DNA of 7,531 nt from a virus (taxonomy: Duplodnaviria > Heunggongvirae > Uroviricota > Caudoviricetes), in IMG/VR virus record IMGVR_UViG_2529292715_000018. One strand, written 5' to 3'. Under the pieces are notes generated by a model. It made no database searches and had not been told where the DNA came from. It was given only the letters and a program-made list of their open reading frames with translations. A program made the translations under genes and the position numbers. Positions within the stretch are counted from its first letter, which is position 1. Each line of letters begins with the position of its first letter. Shown one piece after another: positions 1-7,531 of the stretch.

Positions 1-303
1 TTAACGCGTATTTTTCAGCGACTCCTGTGCAAAATACGCTGTTGCTTTTTTTAATATATCTCGCTCAAGGCGAGCTTCATTTAACGCCTTACGCAGCTGC
101 AGAATTTCAGATTCCAGTTCAGCCAGCGTGCGGGAACCAGGAGTACCGAGCCCTTTTCTGGCGGCGGTAACCCATTGTCCTAAAGTGCCTTCAGGAAGAG
201 ATAATCGGGAAGCGCCTTCACTGATCGAAAGTTGATTTTCAAGAACCGTTCTGACAGCTTCGGCTTTGAACTCTTTAGAGTAACGTTGGGTTTTTCTGCT
301 CAT
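1..303 (-). CDS. IS3-family transposase OrfA (IS600-like), 100 aa, HTH plus leucine-zipper
   Basis: ORF MSRKTQRYSKEFKAEAVRTVLENQLSISEGASRLS...LQLRKALNEARLERDILKKATAYF, typical IS3-family OrfA architecture. Strong SD (AGAAGGAG) 7 nt upstream of ATG on minus strand. Stop codon at 1-3. Confidence 0.85.
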   Translation of the reverse strand: MSRKTQRYSKEFKAEAVRTVLENQLSISEGASRLSLPEGTLGQWVTAARKGLGTPGSRTLAELESEILQLRKALNEARLERDILKKATAYFAQESLKNTR

Positions 304-830: not shown

Positions 831-1655
831 CTATATTTCCAGACATCTGTTATCACTTAACCCATTACAAGCCCGCTGCCGCAGATATTCCCGTGGCGAG
901 CGATAACCCAGCGCACTATGCGGATGCCATTCGTTATAATGCTCGAACGCCTCTGCAAGGTTCTTTGCTGCCGTTAACCCGTCTGGTTTGGGCATGATAC
1001 TGATGTAGTCACGCTTTATCGTTTTCACGAAGCTCTCTGCTATTCCGTTACTCTCCGGACTCCGCACCGCCGTGTTCTTCGGTTCAAGTCCCAACATCCG
1101 GGCGAACTGGCGTGTTTCATTAGCCCGGTAGCATGAACCATTATCCGTCAGCCACTCCACTGGAGACGACGGAAGATCGTTGCCGAAGCGGCGTTCCACC
1201 GCTCCCAGCATGACGTCCTGTACTGTTTCACTGTTGAAGCCGCCGGTAGTCACCGCCCAGTGCAGTGCCTCACGATCACAGCAGTCCAGCGCGAACGTGA
1301 CACGCAGTCTCTCTCCGTTATCACAGCAGAACTCGAACCCGTCAGAGCACCATCGCTGATTGCTTTCTTTCACGGCCACTCTGCCTGTATGTGCCCGTTT
1401 CGATGGCGGTACAGCAGGTTTTCGCTCAAGCAACAGCGCATTCTGGCGCATGATCCGGTAAACACGTTTGGCATTGATCGCAGGCATACCATCAAGTTCT
1501 GCCTGTCTGCGAAGCAGCGCCCATACCCGACGATAACCATACGTGGGCAGCTCTCCGATAACATGGTGTATACGGAGAAGCACATCCGTATCATCAGTGT
1601 GACGACTGCGGCGGCCATCCATCCAGTCATCGGTTCGTCTGAGAATGACGTGCAA
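831..1655 (-). CDS. insD: IS2 transposase InsD (OrfB) catalytic region, N-terminally truncated (begins at [11 protein letters not shown]; no ATG)
   Basis: Translation [18 protein letters not shown]...[34 protein letters not shown] matches InsD from about residue 27 onward. The reported M is a TTG codon. An in-frame TGA lies 10 codons upstream. Confidence 0.85.
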
Positions 1656-1981
1656 CTGCGCACGCGACCCCCGGATTCAACGGCTTCTTTGAGGAGTTCA
1701 TTTTCCATCGTTTTCTTGCCGAGCAGGCGCTGGAGTTCTTTAATCTGCTTCATGGCGGCAGCAAGTTCAGAGGCAGGAACAACCTGTTCTCCGGCGGCCA
1801 CAGCAGTAAGACTTCCTTCCTGGTATTGCTTACGCCAGAGAAATAACTGGCTGGCTGCTACACCATGTTGCCGGGCAACGAGGGAGACCGTCATCCCCGG
1901 TTCAAAGCTCTGCTGAACAATTGCGATCTTTTCCTGTGTGGTACGCCGTCTGCGTTTCTCCGGCCCTAAGACATCAATCAT
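1370..1981 (-). CDS. insC: IS2 InsC (OrfA) with aberrant C-terminal extension; native C-terminus and frameshift window deleted
   Basis: [40 protein letters not shown]...[14 protein letters not shown] matches InsC. After EAVE the frame runs on out of frame through the InsD region to a stop at 1370, instead of ending after about 121 aa. Confidence 0.8.
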
Positions 1982-2072
1982 CTGTTCTCCAATGACTAGT
2001 CTAAAAACTAGTATTAAGGCTATCACTTAAATAAGTGATACTGGTTGTCTGGAGATTCAGGGGGCCAGTCTA

Positions 2073-2819: not shown

Positions 2820-3566
2820 ATGAAAAATATTGCGACAGGAGGCGTTCTGGAGCGTATCCGCAGACTGACCCCACCACATGTAACCGCCCCATTCAGAACG
2901 GTTGCGGAGTGGCGCGAGTGGCAACTTGCTGAAGGCCAGAAACGTTGCGAGGAGATCAACCGCCTGAATCGTCAGTTGCGGGTGGAAAAAATTCTGAACC
3001 GCTCCGGCATCCAGCCGTTGCACCGGAAGTGTTCGTTTGCGAATTACCGGGCGCAGAACGACGGTCAGCGACATGCACTGAGTCAGGCGAAATCCATAGC
3101 TGACGAACTGATGACAGGCTGTACGAATTTTGTGTTCAGCGGTAAGCCCGGCACCGGAAAAAATCATCTTGCAGCCGCGATTGGCAACCGGCTGATGGCG
3201 AAGGGGCGTAGCGTGATTATCGTCACCGTGTCCGATGTCATGAGCGTGTTGCATGAGAGCTACGACAACGGCAAATCCGGTGAAAAATTTTTACAGGAGC
3301 TTTGTGGTGTTGACCTGCTGGTCCTGGATGAAATTGGCATGCAGCGGGATACGAAAAACGAGCAGGTGGTACTGAACCAGATTGTTGATCGCCGGACGGC
3401 ATCGTTACGCGGTGTGGGGATGCTGACAAATATTAACCATGCAGCGATGAATACACTTCTCGGCGAGCGGGTGATGGATCGCATGGTCATGAACGGCGGG
3501 CGCTGGGTGAATTTTAACTGGGAGAGCTGGCGTCCGAATGTTAGCCATTCGAGGGTTGTTAAGTAG
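2820..3566 (+). CDS. DnaC-like helicase loader / phage replication protein (AAA+ ATPase, IstB/DnaC family)
   Basis: Walker A FSGKPGTGKNHLAAAIG and Walker B DLLVLDEIG. SD AGGGGG upstream. Sits immediately downstream of the initiator gene, the usual phage O/P-like pairing. Confidence 0.9.
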   Translation: MKNIATGGVLERIRRLTPPHVTAPFRTVAEWREWQLAEGQKRCEEINRLNRQLRVEKILNRSGIQPLHRKCSFANYRAQNDGQRHALSQAKSIADELMTGCTNFVFSGKPGTGKNHLAAAIGNRLMAKGRSVIIVTVSDVMSVLHESYDNGKSGEKFLQELCGVDLLVLDEIGMQRDTKNEQVVLNQIVDRRTASLRGVGMLTNINHAAMNTLLGERVMDRMVMNGGRWVNFNWESWRPNVSHSRVVK

Positions 3567-3580
3567 TTTCAGGAGGATTT

Positions 3581-4003
3581 ATGGCGAAACCTTTTACTCC
3601 CGAACAGCGGGAAGAACTGAAGACGCGAATTGTGGAACTCGTGCATCAGGACGGTCGGGTCACGATTCGGCAGTTGTCAGATGAAACAGGTATCAGTCGT
3701 GCGTCTGTCGGTCGCTTATGCATGGAACTGGTCGCAAGTGGTGATGTATATAATTCTGGCTACGGGGTATTTCCCTCTGAACAGGCTCATAAAGACTGGC
3801 AAAACGCCCGCAAAAAGCTATCGAGGGTAAAGGTGAAGAAACCGGTTGTGGTTGATCCTGACCTTATCTGGTCATTACCAGACGGAGAAATACGCCGCTA
3901 CGACAGGCGCCTGAATATAATCTGTCGCGAGTGCCGGAAGAGCGAAGCTATGCAGCGCGTGCTGGCGTTTTATCAGGGGAAATTTCAGGAGGCGGTACTG
4001 TGA
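3581..4003 (+). CDS. Ren-like protein (winged-HTH N-terminus; C-terminus resembles lambda Ren)
   Basis: Strong SD (CAGGAGG) 6 nt upstream. C-terminal ICRECRKSEAMQRVLAFYQGK resembles lambda Ren VFKECRQSAAMKRVLAVYGVK as recalled. Position directly after the P-like gene matches lambda ren. Confidence 0.75.
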   Translation: MAKPFTPEQREELKTRIVELVHQDGRVTIRQLSDETGISRASVGRLCMELVASGDVYNSGYGVFPSEQAHKDWQNARKKLSRVKVKKPVVVDPDLIWSLPDGEIRRYDRRLNIICRECRKSEAMQRVLAFYQGKFQEAVL

Positions 4004-4060: not shown

Positions 4061-4417
4061 ATGGAAATAAAACCAGAAGATGAGTTAAGCAATATCGTTT
4101 TATTTCCGGTAAAAGAGGATGACCCACGTAATCAGGTTAATTTTCTTTATGAACCATCGGAAAGACCATATTGCCATCACGCCTCTGTCCGGGTTGACGA
4201 AAAAGAGCGTCAGGTCCGCTGTAAAATCTGCGGTGCGGTTGTGGAGCCGTTTGACTGGATGCTCTCTGTGGCAAAAAGAGAAACCAGACTGGCAGATGAT
4301 GTAAGGCTATTGCGCCAGGAGGAACAGGAAAGGCGGAGAAATATAGAAAAGCTGATACAGATTGAGCGTAACGCGAAAGCGCGGATACGCAGGGCGACAA
4401 AATCCAGAACTGAATAA
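4061..4417 (+). CDS. Hypothetical phage protein, putative zinc-ribbon (CHH...CxxC) with basic coiled-coil C-terminus
   Basis: SD AAAGGAGAGGAG upstream of ATG. Motif YCHHASVRVDEKERQVRCKICGAV. C-terminal region rich in R/E/Q. No family recognised. Confidence 0.7.
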   Translation: MEIKPEDELSNIVLFPVKEDDPRNQVNFLYEPSERPYCHHASVRVDEKERQVRCKICGAVVEPFDWMLSVAKRETRLADDVRLLRQEEQERRRNIEKLIQIERNAKARIRRATKSRTE

Positions 4418-4509: not shown

Positions 4510-4728
4510 ATGGTTACATTATTTAGAAAAAAATATCCGCGAAAGAGTAGAACAACAGAATTCCTGTTTCTCATTCTGTTTATCGTGTTGATGACACCGA
4601 TATCCCCGCTAATTTTTGTCTGGATAATCGGAAAAATAATTGAGCCAGTTATTGAATTGTATAACGACGTGGTATGGGCGTCATTCAACACACTGCACAA
4701 TAAAATTAATCCGTATAAGGAAAGCTGA
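4510..4728 (+). CDS. Putative small membrane protein (72 aa, one predicted TM helix) in an AT-rich islet
   Basis: Basic N-terminus (RKKYPRKSR) followed by hydrophobic FLFLILFIVLMTPISPLIFVWIIGKII. Local GC clearly lower than flanks. Putative SD AAGGG sits inside a hairpin. Could be a non-coding spacer instead. Confidence 0.4.
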   Translation: MVTLFRKKYPRKSRTTEFLFLILFIVLMTPISPLIFVWIIGKIIEPVIELYNDVVWASFNTLHNKINPYKES

Positions 4729-4729
4729 T

Positions 4730-5164
4730 ATGGCACTGACGAAAAAACAACGTGCAGAACTGCGCATGAAGTTCGGTGGTCGCTGCGCTTATTGCGGCTG
4801 CGAACTTGGCGAAAAGTGGCATGCAGACCATGTAAAACCGGTCATTCGTTTTGATGGAAATATGCTTCACCAGGAACGTGACGATATATCCAACATGGTA
4901 CCAGAATGCCACCCATGCAATCTGCACAAGCATTGCAGTAGCCTAGAAGATTATCGACGAATTATCAGTGATGGTCGTCGTGAATTCCTTGCGTCCGGGA
5001 AAGGCAAAGCGCTGGTTCGTATGGGATTGGTTGAAATGAAATCTGACCCGGTTGTGTTCTGGTTTGAAAAATATCAAGAAGGGGCTACGGCATGGCCACT
5101 ATTACCAAAGAGCGACTGCAATGGCTGGCTAACATTTCTGGCCGCGATGATATTGACGATATAG
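4730..5164 (+). CDS. HNH endonuclease
   Basis: Motifs CAYCGCEL, HADHVKPV and PECHPCNLHK fit the HNH pattern. SD AAGGAAA upstream of ATG at 4730; the ORF track start at 4640 is probably an over-extension. The 3' end overlaps the next gene by 73 nt in another frame. Confidence 0.85.
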   Translation: MALTKKQRAELRMKFGGRCAYCGCELGEKWHADHVKPVIRFDGNMLHQERDDISNMVPECHPCNLHKHCSSLEDYRRIISDGRREFLASGKGKALVRMGLVEMKSDPVVFWFEKYQEGATAWPLLPKSDCNGWLTFLAAMILTI

Positions 5165-5757
5165 ACGGCGGTGAAATTCGTGAACTGGCGCTTATCGCTC
5201 TGGCATCACTGGAAGCAGAGCCTGTAGCGGAATGCATTGTTGAAGATGGGGGCATGTGTATTGACGGGTTCGGTGAGTATGTGGGTCACTCGCTGCCTGA
5301 TGGAATGCATGAGCTTTATGCTGCCCCGCGAATGCGACAACCTGATGGATGGAAAGCCGTAGCTGTAGCGTGGAAGGTGACGTTTACTCAAGTTGACCAG
5401 GAATCTAATACGTTCACTGCTATATATTTTGACAAAGCGGAAGTTGAGCGTTGGGTACGACTGCATAAAGCATGTGATTTTCGGGCAGATATAACACCGC
5501 TTTACGCAGCGCCGGCAGTGCCGGTTGCAGTAAACGACGACATGGCTTACGCATTCCATCACGCACTGTCAGATTCATCGCTTGGCTCTGGTGAAATCGA
5601 AGAAATTAAAACCGGTTTGCGTGCTGCCTTTGCCAACGTCACTATCCAACCAGAGCCGATAGTGCCGGATGAAATCGGGCCAAACGATAGTAATACGTTT
5701 GATTATGTTGATGGCTGGAACGCCTGCCGCGCTGCCATGCTTAAGGGAGATAAATAA
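5092..5757 (+). CDS. Hypothetical phage accessory protein (221 aa), acidic N-terminus, internal LYAAP repeat
   Basis: SD AAGAAGGGG 7 nt upstream of ATG. Stop overlaps the start of the next gene (TAATG). No confident family assignment. Confidence 0.7.
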   Translation: MATITKERLQWLANISGRDDIDDIDGGEIRELALIALASLEAEPVAECIVEDGGMCIDGFGEYVGHSLPDGMHELYAAPRMRQPDGWKAVAVAWKVTFTQVDQESNTFTAIYFDKAEVERWVRLHKACDFRADITPLYAAPAVPVAVNDDMAYAFHHALSDSSLGSGEIEEIKTGLRAAFANVTIQPEPIVPDEIGPNDSNTFDYVDGWNACRAAMLKGDK

Positions 5758-6122
5758 TGATTAATCGAACCAAACTGGAGCACATTCTCGAATATGCCAG
5801 GCAGCAGAAATGTATTGGGCAACTTTGTAAAATTCCACCAGGAGATATGGTTGAAATCGTGGAAATGGCCATGCGTAAGGCTGGCAACTCTCCGGTAACT
5901 CTGGCTGGCTGGATAAGCTGTAGTGATGCAGTTCCTGCTGAATATTGCGATGTGATTCTTCTCGATGATCTCGGGAATGTATTCCCCGGTTCCTGGGATA
6001 AGGTTTTTTGCCCCACTCGTGGCGGGAATAAGATGGCTTTTGTGGACAAAGACGGCGTTGAAGTAGAGAGCTCAACTCACTGGATGCCGCTACCGGAACC
6101 ACCGCAGGAGGTGAATCAATGA
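5757..6122 (+). CDS. DUF551-domain phage protein
   Basis: C-terminal THWMPLPEPP and GWISCSDAVPAEYCDVILL match the DUF551 pattern as recalled. Translationally coupled to the upstream gene. Confidence 0.8.
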   Translation: MINRTKLEHILEYARQQKCIGQLCKIPPGDMVEIVEMAMRKAGNSPVTLAGWISCSDAVPAEYCDVILLDDLGNVFPGSWDKVFCPTRGGNKMAFVDKDGVEVESSTHWMPLPEPPQEVNQ

Positions 6123-6202
6123 CCTGGCCTGAGGCATTCACCACGGTAGGAATTGCGATGGCGGTGGCGCTGGTGGTGTATTCGATTTGCCGTTGGGGTT
6201 AA
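6119..6202 (+). CDS. Small hydrophobic peptide (27 aa, MTWPEAFTTVGIAMAVALVVYSICRWG), putative single-TM membrane peptide
   Basis: ATG overlaps the upstream stop (ATGA). Strong SD AGGAGG 8 nt upstream. Followed within 10 nt by an intrinsic terminator. Below the ORF-track length cutoff. Confidence 0.4.
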   Translation: MTWPEAFTTVGIAMAVALVVYSICRWG

Positions 6203-6209
6203 CAAACAA

Positions 6210-6240
6210 AAACCCCGGATTGATGGTCCGGGGTTTTTGA
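6210..6240 (+). terminator. Rho-independent terminator
   Basis: Hairpin AACCCCGGA...TCCGGGGTT followed by TTTTT. Confidence 0.75.
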
Positions 6241-6408
6241 AGGAAACAAAACAGAAACAGCAATTGCCGTTACCTGTTGTTACCATGGCAAGTAAACGTA
6301 TCTCAGGCGAGCGCATTGCGCCGTTCTGACGCAGATAAATTAGCCTGGATAGAAGGTGCTGGCAATAAAAAATAGCGTTTTCTTATCGGTATCGGTAAGA
6401 TTGCTGCG

Positions 6409-6420
6409 GGTGCTTGAGGC
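6409..6420 (+). promoter_or_regulatory. Putative 5' end of hok mRNA (tac-like element GGTGCTTGAGGC)
   Basis: Resembles the 5' end of plasmid R1 hok mRNA (GGCGCUUGAGGC) as recalled. Complementary to a 3' element at 6782-6793. A possible -10 (TAAGAT) lies at 6396-6401. Confidence 0.5.
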
Positions 6421-6454
6421 TGTCTGCCTCGGGCATGCCACTGTAAGGCAGACA

Positions 6455-6550
6455 GAGAAAAGCCCCAGTTAACATTACGCGTCCTGCAAGACGCTTAACA
6501 TTAATCTGAGGCCCAATCTATGTCTCACAAATGTAGGTTAGCCTCTTACG
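6455..6550 (-). ncRNA. Sok-like antisense RNA, putative; boundaries approximate
   Basis: By analogy with hok/sok loci the antisense RNA is encoded opposite the mok start and leader. An inverted repeat GCGTC...GACGC (6479-6494) and a T-rich stretch on the minus strand could form its 3' end. Promoter not confidently identified. Confidence 0.35.
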
Positions 6551-6732
6551 TGCCGAAAGGCAAGGAGAAGCAGGCTATGAAGCAGCAAAAGGCGATGTTA
6601 ATCGCCCTGATCGTCATCTGTTTAACCGTCATAGTGACGGCACTGGTAACGAGGAAAGACCTCTGCGAGGTACGAATCCGAACCGGCCAGACGGAGGTCG
6701 CTGTCTTCACAGCTTACGAACCTGAGGAGTAA
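6520..6732 (+). CDS. Mok-like reading frame (70 aa) containing hok in frame
   Basis: ATG at 6520 opens a frame running into and through hok, the arrangement recalled for chromosomal mokC/hokC. Confidence 0.55.
   Translation: MSHKCRLASYVPKGKEKQAMKQQKAMLIALIVICLTVIVTALVTRKDLCEVRIRTGQTEVAVFTAYEPEE
6577..6732 (+). CDS. hokD: Hok/Gef-family type I toxin (51 aa), HokD/RelF-like
   Basis: MKQQKAMLIALIVICLTVIVTALVTRKDLCEVRIRTGQTEVAVFTAYEPEE: single TM helix plus conserved RKxLCE...GQTEVA motif. Matches HokD (RelF) as recalled from memory. SD AAGGAG upstream. Confidence 0.85.
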   Translation: MKQQKAMLIALIVICLTVIVTALVTRKDLCEVRIRTGQTEVAVFTAYEPEE

Positions 6733-6781
6733 GAGACCAGGCGGGGGAGAAATCCCTCGCCACCTCTCATGTGTCAGGCAT

Positions 6782-6793
6782 CCTCAACGCACC
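6782..6793 (+). promoter_or_regulatory. fbi-like 3' element of hok mRNA (CCTCAACGCACC)
   Basis: Reverse complement GGTGCGTTGAGG pairs with 6409-6419 with a single-nucleotide bulge. Confidence 0.5.
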
Positions 6794-6799
6794 CGCACT

Positions 6800-6823
6800 A
6801 AACCCGCTTCGGCGGGTTTTTTG
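6800..6823 (+). terminator. Rho-independent terminator of hok transcript
   Basis: Hairpin AACCCGC-TTCG-GCGGGTT followed by TTTTTT. Confidence 0.75.
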
Positions 6824-7222: not shown

Positions 7223-7531
7223 GGTAATGACTCCAACTTACTGATAGTGTTTTATGTTCAGATAATGCCCGATGACCTTGTCATGCAGCTCCACCGATTT
7301 TGAGAACGACAGTGACTTCCGTCCCAGCCTTGCCAGATGTTGTCTCAGATTCAGATTATGTCGCTCAATGCGCTGAGTGTAACGCTTGCTGATAACGTGC
7401 AGCTTTCCCTTCAGGCGTGATTCATACAGCGGCCAGCCATCCGTCATCCATACCATGACCTCAAAGGCCGACAGCAGGCTCAGAAGACGCTCCAGTGTGG
7501 CCAGAGTGCGTTCACCGAAGACGTGCGCCAC
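7223..7531 (-). mobile_element. IS1 element, partial (terminus at 7223; continues beyond window end)
   Basis: Terminus GGTAATGACTCCAACTTACTGATAGTGTTTTATGTTCAGATAATGCCCGATGAC matches the IS1 inverted repeat as recalled. InsB C-terminus is encoded on the minus strand. Confidence 0.9.
7238..7531 (-). CDS. insB: IS1 transposase InsB, C-terminal part (partial at window edge)
   Basis: [94 protein letters not shown] matches InsB with a few substitutions relative to the K-12 isoform as recalled. Confidence 0.9.

Follow-up and report, generated by a model that had tools for sequence, protein, structure and literature searches.

A conserved 27-codon open reading frame of lambdoid prophages probably encodes a translationally coupled, single-helix membrane microprotein

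Introduction

We describe here a very short open reading frame (ORF), 27 codons from ATG to TAA (positions 6119–6202, plus strand), carried by a stretch of DNA of 7,531 nucleotides from a virus of the Caudoviricetes (IMG/VR record IMGVR_UViG_2529292715_000018). This whole stretch is referred to below as the window. The product of the ORF would be MTWPEAFTTVGIAMAVALVVYSICRWG. Its frame, the Shine-Dalgarno sequence which precedes it and the ATGA motif in which its start overlaps the stop of the upstream gene are conserved as a unit, and its substitutions are those of a coding sequence under purifying selection. The initial annotation of the window had proposed a real but overlooked peptide gene at this position. 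This is supported by conservation of the length of the ORF in 126 of 134 copies and by a ratio of nonsynonymous to synonymous differences (pN/pS) of 0.36 in its frame versus 1.0–1.4 in the others. From these sequence comparisons we consider it very likely that the ORF is a real, translated gene. That it is, taken as a whole, a genuine protein-coding micro-gene for a coupled small membrane peptide appears likely to us.

Results

A 27-codon ORF overlapping the end of the upstream gene

In the window the ORF follows a gene for a 121-aa protein with a DUF551 domain (5757–6122, plus strand; Pfam PF04448, E 3.4e-19), which is the final sizeable gene of an early accessory operon and is annotated by PGAP in the near-identical locus L001. 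The ATG at 6119 and the TGA of the DUF551 gene at 6120–6122 together form an ATGA overlap (6119–6122, plus strand), a putative signal for translational coupling. A Shine-Dalgarno sequence, AGGAGG (6106–6111, plus strand), can be read directly within the final codons of the upstream gene, and 7 nt separate its last G from the ATG. The RNA of the ORF itself folds no better than shuffled controls (z −0.8), and a scanner found no promoter-like site between 5700 and 6800, an interval which includes about 420 nt upstream of the ORF.

A hairpin (6207–6239, not assigned to a strand) begins about 4–5 nt past the stop codon. It includes 15 pairs, with a dG of −23 kcal/mol and a z of −4.3, and none of 200 shuffled sequences folded equally well. 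Flanked by an A-tract (5′) and a U-tract (3′), it is a putative intrinsic terminator; a simple terminator scanner calls it on the minus strand only, and its sequence suggests that it is probably bidirectional. The elements listed by the initial annotation (the ORF, the ATGA overlap, the AGGAGG, the hydrophobic 27-aa product and the hairpin behind it) are all confirmed in the sequence. A lone short ORF of this type could nevertheless occur by chance; it is its conservation that exceeds chance.

Length, start signals and reading frame are conserved

Related loci were collected from three sources: BLAST searches of phages, plasmids and complete E. coli genomes; IMG/VR contigs, which were scanned with a pattern degenerate at the third position of each of the first seven codons; and the most divergent matches, which were retrieved singly. 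Among 134 enterobacterial copies, 126 are exactly 27 codons long, down to 73% nucleotide identity. The others include one which runs off the end of its contig, one with a frameshift (L093), two in which the TGG of codon 3 has become TAG, and four length variants of 25, 24, 38 and 40 aa. The intact copies represent 63 distinct nucleotide sequences and 39 distinct peptides, and those of 27 residues at 73–86% nucleotide identity include MSWPDAIVTLGVVFAAAFVVFSICRWG and MNWPEAFTAVGVAIAVAFILYSLFRWG, which together with MTWPDAFAIVGVAMSIALIVFAICRWG are examples from the range of 73–80%. A purine run resembling a Shine-Dalgarno sequence is found at −16 to −5 in 135 of 137 related loci.

Substitutions were analyzed by the Nei-Gojobori method over codons 8–27, a range lying outside the ascertainment pattern of the first seven codons. 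The pN/pS is 0.35–0.36 in the frame of the ORF versus 1.02 and 1.40 in the other sense frames. With 13 divergent representatives, at least 10 nt apart, it is 0.48 versus 0.73 and 1.34. Since the RNA of the ORF is unstructured and the substitutions follow this pattern, the segment behaves as a coding sequence and not as a structural or DNA-level element. Stops or frameshifts in this frame amid otherwise conserved DNA would, according to the initial annotation, have spoken against a gene. The homologous loci present the opposite picture, with both frame and length kept.

At the peptide level, residues M1, W3, P4, A6 and W26 are invariant across the 39 variants and G11, A15, A17, S22 and the tail YSICRWG are nearly so. 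Replacements in the core exchange one hydrophobic residue for another, and the mean Kyte-Doolittle hydropathy of residues 8–24 lies between 1.27 and 2.80 in all 39 variants.

The two copies with TAG at codon 3 occur in related lineages, L129:2518 (E. coli 2014C-3338) and L260:601 (Shigella phage POCJ13). Both have a context like the right arm of phage 933W, with an upstream gene ending in ..KEVRQ, and the frame in L129 is otherwise intact. From their sequences, these copies look like a pseudogenised sub-lineage. Two longer deposited variants, P0066 (35 aa) and P0073 (33 aa), have the hexanucleotide GCGATG expanded in frame, giving (Ala-Met)n repeats and a longer hydrophobic helix. A 66-aa antisense ORF (6116–6316, minus strand), which spans both the ORF and the terminator, was also considered and rejected as coding, with a pN/pS of 1.28 in its frame.

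The ORF is an independent cassette with variable neighbours

The genes found upstream of the ORF are of many types. They include several kinds of DUF551 gene, a dATP/dGTP-pyrophosphohydrolase fused to DUF551, a protein of the 933W L0139 type, a family ending in ..NGLISAEDVLR and a 220-aa protein of Av-05, a phage of the Vequintavirinae; the last three have no Pfam match. In every type the ATGA overlap with the upstream stop is present, and it is preceded by gene tails as unrelated as ..PLPEPPQEVNQ, ..DLKNIEQEVNR and ..NGLISAEDVLR. In alignments of loci with different upstream genes, homology begins about 0–15 nt before the ATG, and the Shine-Dalgarno sequence travels with the ORF.

The downstream side is equally variable. 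Of 73 non-redundant contexts, 34 (about 47%) have a hok locus no more than 700 nt away. In 22 of these 34, of which 933W is an example, it is found at a fixed distance of +45 nt with no terminator, and the upstream genes differ. The remaining contexts have at least eight different terminator-like hairpins just past the stop, or else a next gene which starts 2–6 nt after it. Genes following this closely are a DUF4222 gene, itself followed by xis/int, or, on phage-plasmids of about 95 kb, a gene for a 77-aa protein which starts 2 nt past the stop. In several tightly packed and annotated phage operons, the approximately 84 nt of the ORF are the sole unannotated gap. The terminator of the window, together with the following 190 bp or so, is missing from the 933W and 606R7 loci, and the ORF is kept there.

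The ORF, its Shine-Dalgarno sequence and the ATGA thus form an independent cassette. Since the ORF persists both without the terminator and without DUF551, it is not simply part of a Shine-Dalgarno or terminator context. One point of the initial annotation needs to be refined here. The ATGA overlap with DUF551 is present, but the putative coupling is not specific to DUF551, several unrelated genes occupying the same position. The terminator directly behind the ORF is present in the window but is not obligatory: it is missing from 933W-type loci and replaced elsewhere.

The K-12 prophage CPS-53 contains a gene, yfdT (L256:11874-12235), ending in ..QQEVK*, similar to the ..QEVNQ* tails above, and no small ORF is found behind it. 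The gene ypdJ, which overlaps the 3′ end of yfdT, is unrelated to the 27-aa peptide.

Distribution and absence from annotation

Of 5,426 complete E. coli genomes, 1,706 contain the segment; it occurs there at 3,064 sites, and a single genome may have as many as seven. It is also carried by 94 deposited phage genomes, including 933W, VT2-Sakai, VT1-Sakai, BP-4795, ArgO145, Min27 and Av-05, and by 226 plasmids. Most of the plasmids come from Escherichia and Salmonella and are non-mobilizable, with a size of around 95 kb. Phage, plasmid and protein searches found it in Escherichia, Shigella and Salmonella, together with two weak matches in Klebsiella plasmids. A single scan of genome contigs with an over-degenerate pattern gave 120 matches, mostly chance occurrences in unrelated taxa, and six true copies. 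One contig of 431 bp assigned to Xanthomonas pisi DSM 18956 (L186; NZ_JPLE01000323.1) carries a 933W-type ORF as well as the first part of the hok promoter region, and is almost certainly a contamination of that assembly by E. coli phage DNA.

In every annotated record examined, whether annotated by PGAP or by the depositor, the ORF is a gap. In 933W and in the Sakai prophage Sp5, for example, it lies unannotated between L0139/ECs_1246 and sokW-mokW/ECs_1245. The exact peptide does occur in protein databases, on 79 contigs, and 71 related protein clusters are named “hypothetical protein”, “bacteriophage protein” or “prophage protein”, some of them with spurious N-terminal extensions. The peptide has been clustered under a 121-aa DUF551 representative, and several entries consisting of the peptide only are named “DUF551 domain-containing protein, partial”. 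This identity was rejected: it is the upstream protein and not the peptide that matches the DUF551 profile (PF04448), and the label is a propagated mislabel.

No model of Pfam, NCBIfam, PHROG or PADLOC covers the peptide; these searches returned sub-threshold matches to hydrophobic segments only, the best being to phrog_4612 (E 0.015–0.09). The peptide string appears in no paper of the literature searched and is absent from the supplements of Hucker 2017 and of “The Cryptic Bacterial Microproteome”. A study of hokW-sokW (PMC8621323) does not mention the ORF upstream of that locus. Taken from sequences and records, the ORF is very probably a conserved micro-gene without a described family which annotation has systematically missed.

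Prophage context of the window

The genes upstream of DUF551 in the window encode a DnaC/IstB-like ATPase (2820–3566), a DUF977 protein (3581–4003), a Zn-ribbon protein (4061–4417), a DUF4014 protein (4510–4728), an HNH endonuclease (4730–5164) and a 221-aa protein with no Pfam match (5092–5757). The region is the accessory stretch which follows the replication genes of a lambdoid prophage, and the initial label of nin-type region is a fair description of it.

Downstream, and outside the ORF, lies an adjacent module, a hok/sok type I toxin-antitoxin locus (6408–6732, plus strand). It includes the sok region and hok mRNA leader (6408–6582, plus strand; Rfam RF01794, 118 bits, E 7e-28) and the hok coding sequence (6577–6732, plus strand; Pfam HOK_GEF, E 3e-23). 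A “mok-like” ORF of 70 aa (6520–6732, plus strand) is an in-frame N-terminal extension of hok with the same stop (compare the mokW/hokW annotation in 933W), and is not in a frame different from hok. Adjoining hok on its downstream side is a sub-threshold Rfam match to isrK (6741–6822, plus strand; 30.6 bits compared with a gathering score of 50, E 2e-4), which ends in a GC-rich hairpin and a U-tract. This stretch could be the hok terminator or an element resembling a small RNA. The segment 6203–6395 (about 190 bp, including the terminator) is found in loci of the window type and is cleanly missing from those of the 933W/606R7 type, in which the −35 region of hok abuts the stop of the ORF: it is an indel module.

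Three segments derived from insertion sequences (IS) interrupt the prophage. These are an IS3-family orfA (1–303, minus strand), an IS3-like transposase of the ISEc52 type (831–2026, minus strand), whose counterpart in the near-identical locus L001 carries a frameshift in its annotation, and an IS1 InsB-like ORF (7238–7531, minus strand). An ORF of the replication region (407–997) is apparently truncated by the element at 831–2026. The host of the window is probably Shigella or a Shigella-like E. coli.

Discussion

A predicted single-helix peptide and how it may be produced

The ORF has a start codon with a ribosome binding site, a hydrophobic segment which, by hydropathy, would span the membrane, and a frame under purifying selection, the features looked for in a small membrane protein. 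In the mechanism we propose, ribosomes finishing any of the upstream genes would stop at the TGA and reinitiate at the overlapping ATG with the help of the Shine-Dalgarno sequence, so that the peptide would be made whenever the early accessory (nin/ea-type) operon of the prophage is translated. The product would be essentially one transmembrane helix, residues 8–24 being hydrophobic. There are aromatic residues at both ends of this helix (W3/F7 and Y21/W26) and an arginine, R25, near the C-terminus. The aromatic belts from W3 to W26 are 23 residues apart, which corresponds to about 34 Å as a helix, or about one bilayer. Insertion of the peptide into the membrane is, from these properties, probable.

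Small residues occupy positions 11, 13, 15 and 17 (G11-x-A13-x-A15-x-A17), and this face would favour packing of the helix with a partner or with itself. According to the positive-inside rule, E5 at the N-terminal end and R25 close to the C-terminal one suggest an N-out/C-in orientation in the inner membrane. The weakest step of the proposal is the mode of action, in which the peptide would pack against a second membrane protein or against another copy of itself. It might modulate a host or phage membrane protein, take part in superinfection exclusion, or affect membrane integrity together with the frequently adjacent Hok; any specific role of this type can be offered only as a tentative suggestion. 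The adjacency of hok is notable in that it is frequent and precisely spaced, yet obligatory in neither direction, and the known hok/sok mechanism requires no such peptide.

Several observations weigh against this interpretation. Three of the 134 copies, though only three, are clearly broken (one by the frameshift and two by the W3 amber codon). The pN/pS signal is moderate, coming from pooled pairwise counts over sequences which are related and recombine. Most copies entered the sample through a pattern fixing the first seven codons, and some residual bias is possible even with the copies found by BLAST added. One of the other antisense frames, the mirror frame, has a pN/pS of 0.30, similar to that of the ORF frame. 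The two ratios resemble one another because the frames share their wobble positions, and the mirror frame is excluded as a gene not by its ratio but because it has no start inside the segment and no consistent ORF, running on into whichever gene lies upstream. PGAP calls the ORF in none of the RefSeq loci examined. No copy was found in the three K-12 prophages compared, CPS-53 (ypdJ), Qin and Rac, a set which leaves out DLP12, e14 and the others of that strain; that small-protein screens based on K-12 do not report the peptide is consistent with its absence from these three. The ribosome profiling survey of strain Sakai (Hucker 2017) covered ORFs of at least 30 aa only, a size range above that of the present ORF. 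Finally, the membrane topology and the function proposed above derive from reasoning on sequence.

Alternative explanations

Could the 84 nt instead be a non-coding junction, a recombination linker between lambdoid mosaic modules in which the open frame is incidental? Homology does start abruptly at or just before the ATG among loci with different upstream genes, the downstream modules switch right past the stop so that the segment does sit at mosaic boundaries, and standard pipelines do not call the ORF. Conservation at the DNA level would not, however, confine change to the synonymous sites of a single frame (0.36 versus 1.0–1.4), nor would it fix a length of 27 codons down to 73% identity, keep an ATG with its Shine-Dalgarno sequence in 135 of 137 loci or preserve a hydrophobic core through 39 variants, and we consider a mere junction very unlikely. 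We view with similar and slightly greater doubt the idea that translation matters in cis, and not the peptide: ribosomes would be kept on the mRNA up to the terminator or the hok promoter, which might prevent Rho-dependent polarity or modulate formation of the hairpin. The geometry is suitable. The stop in the window lies 4 nt before the stem, the 5′ part of which would be covered by a terminating ribosome, and many contexts have a terminator-like hairpin about 5–25 nt from the stop. But the ORF is also kept where there is no terminator, as in 933W-type loci and in operon-internal copies with the next gene 2–6 nt away, and a role in cis does not need the constraint observed on amino acid identity (invariant W3, P4, A6 and W26, and the YSICRWG tail). 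A leader peptide or attenuator was rejected on related grounds: the ORF is retained without a terminator, there is no alternative pairing or excess of structure, and the peptide sequence is constrained. An Rfam search over 6100–6250 found no family at threshold. The Pas prophage small RNAs were rejected as an identity for the ORF-plus-terminator region on genomic position only, the Pas sequences themselves being uncompared; PasA and PasC sit beside a holin/lysozyme operon with RusA, TerB and DUF1627.

Two further explanations accept that the frame is translated and differ from a coupled small membrane peptide in what the product would be. By the first it would be a small membrane toxin, similar to type I toxins or holins, which damages or depolarises the inner membrane, possibly in cooperation with Hok. 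Its size, hydrophobicity and face of small residues are like those of the Ibs, Sho, DinQ and Ldr toxins as generally known, hok is found within 700 nt downstream in 34 of 73 contexts (22 at the fixed +45 nt), and a glycine-zipper domain and a holin PHROG are matched weakly, below threshold. Against this, the ORF lacks its own promoter and a structured leader and matches no antisense RNA (the sok match starts at 6408, outside the ORF); its Shine-Dalgarno sequence is strong and exposed, with direct coupling to the upstream gene; Pfam, NCBIfam, PHROGs and PADLOC give no match to HOK_GEF or any other toxin family; and it does not lie in a lysis cassette. More than half of its contexts are without hok. 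An identity as a type I toxin fails because the defining regulatory features and homology are lacking; the peptide could still be toxic, and we judge the toxin explanation as a whole unlikely. By the second, the segment would be a C-terminal membrane anchor joined to the upstream protein by programmed −1 ribosomal frameshifting. The ORF is indeed in the −1 frame relative to DUF551, this frame has no stop in the 19 codons ahead of the ORF (from 6062), and some peptide-only database entries are labelled “DUF551 ... partial”. There is, however, no slippery heptamer in 6062–6118, a conserved ATG and Shine-Dalgarno sequence would be unnecessary, the upstream genes are mutually unrelated, the upstream in-frame stretch is short or missing in other loci, and the “partial” labels look artefactual. 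Such a fusion appears extremely unlikely.

Comparison with known small proteins and phage accessory genes

The small (50 aa or fewer) inner-membrane proteins AcrZ, MgtS, CydX and KdpF of E. coli, found by Storz-type small-protein screens, are in many respects similar to the peptide. They share its size and single hydrophobic helix, interfacial aromatic residues, a basic residue on one side, a start that depends on a Shine-Dalgarno sequence, and omission by annotation pipelines. By analogy, the peptide probably works like proteins of the AcrZ class, with its helix packed onto a larger membrane protein. In sequence it is unrelated to this class, the best match (to KdpF, E 0.024) being below the cutoff. 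Unlike its members, the 27-aa peptide is borne by prophages, is not found in the three K-12 prophages examined, is coupled through ATGA and has no known partner.

Hok/Gef, Ldr, Ibs, ShoB, DinQ and TisB are likewise small hydrophobic membrane peptides, and hok/sok is adjacent to the ORF in about 47% of contexts. Unlike these type I toxins, the peptide shows no homology to them, and its ORF has no antisense RNA, no promoter of its own and no translation-blocking leader, and is coupled to the upstream gene. Moreover, hok loci occur without the ORF (K-12 hokD) and the ORF occurs without hok.

In its location the ORF resembles the moron-like nin/ea accessory genes of lambdoid phages, with the same delayed-early position, mosaic edges and spread over otherwise different phages. 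It differs from the named nin/ea genes in being much shorter and hydrophobic, in lacking its own promoter/terminator pair and in borrowing its translation from the preceding gene. Among profile families, the whole peptide aligns, below threshold, with positions 33–57 of phrog_4612, a profile of 57 positions and unknown function, whose members could be related proteins, or the same ORF called with too long an N-terminus.

A possible wider family of micro-ORFs

Micro-ORFs of 27–50 aa with an MTWPEAF start, a hydrophobic helix and a basic tail were also observed in unrelated viral contigs of 45–71% GC: L263 (~5174, minus strand), L265, L043:9777, L054, L088, L016:7444 / L078 and L120. Most of them overlap the stop of an upstream ORF. 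That of L263 reads MTWPEAFTTVGLAFAALGAL... and agrees with the E. coli peptide at 13 of the first 16 positions, and a candidate in L265/L043 reads MTWPEAFCSVGWAAALAST.WALAWWAKR. A scan of the whole collection restricted to G/C at wobble positions gave seven matches, three of which are clearly due to chance. A scan for WPEAFxxVG without a start codon, aimed at high-GC homologs, was rejected, its matches being mostly an internal motif of an unrelated large protein. These micro-ORFs could be partly chance occurrences. That the peptide is the enterobacterial branch of a wider phage microprotein family, characterized by MTWPEAF(xxVG) with one transmembrane helix, by stop/start coupling and by a specific membrane target, seems from these sequences distinctly improbable. 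The action of such a family would be, for instance, to modulate the neighbouring Hok or to block entry of a superinfecting phage.

Significance

If it is translated, the ORF is a conserved gene which has been left out when about one third of complete E. coli genomes were annotated, and left out too in the medically important Shiga-toxin (Stx) phages 933W, VT2-Sakai, VT1-Sakai and BP-4795. Its place in 933W and Sakai Sp5 is immediately before hokW-sokW, a locus reported to affect phage release (PMC8621323), and constructs or deletions made around hokW-sokW may remove or retain an unrecognised membrane peptide. It also provides an example of an ORF just under the usual 30-codon cutoffs which can be rescued by comparative genomics. 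With 27 residues and a strong Shine-Dalgarno sequence, it is a tractable target which is easy to tag or to synthesize. The description given here may be of use for annotation as well as for work on the accessory regions of Stx phages or on hokW-sokW.

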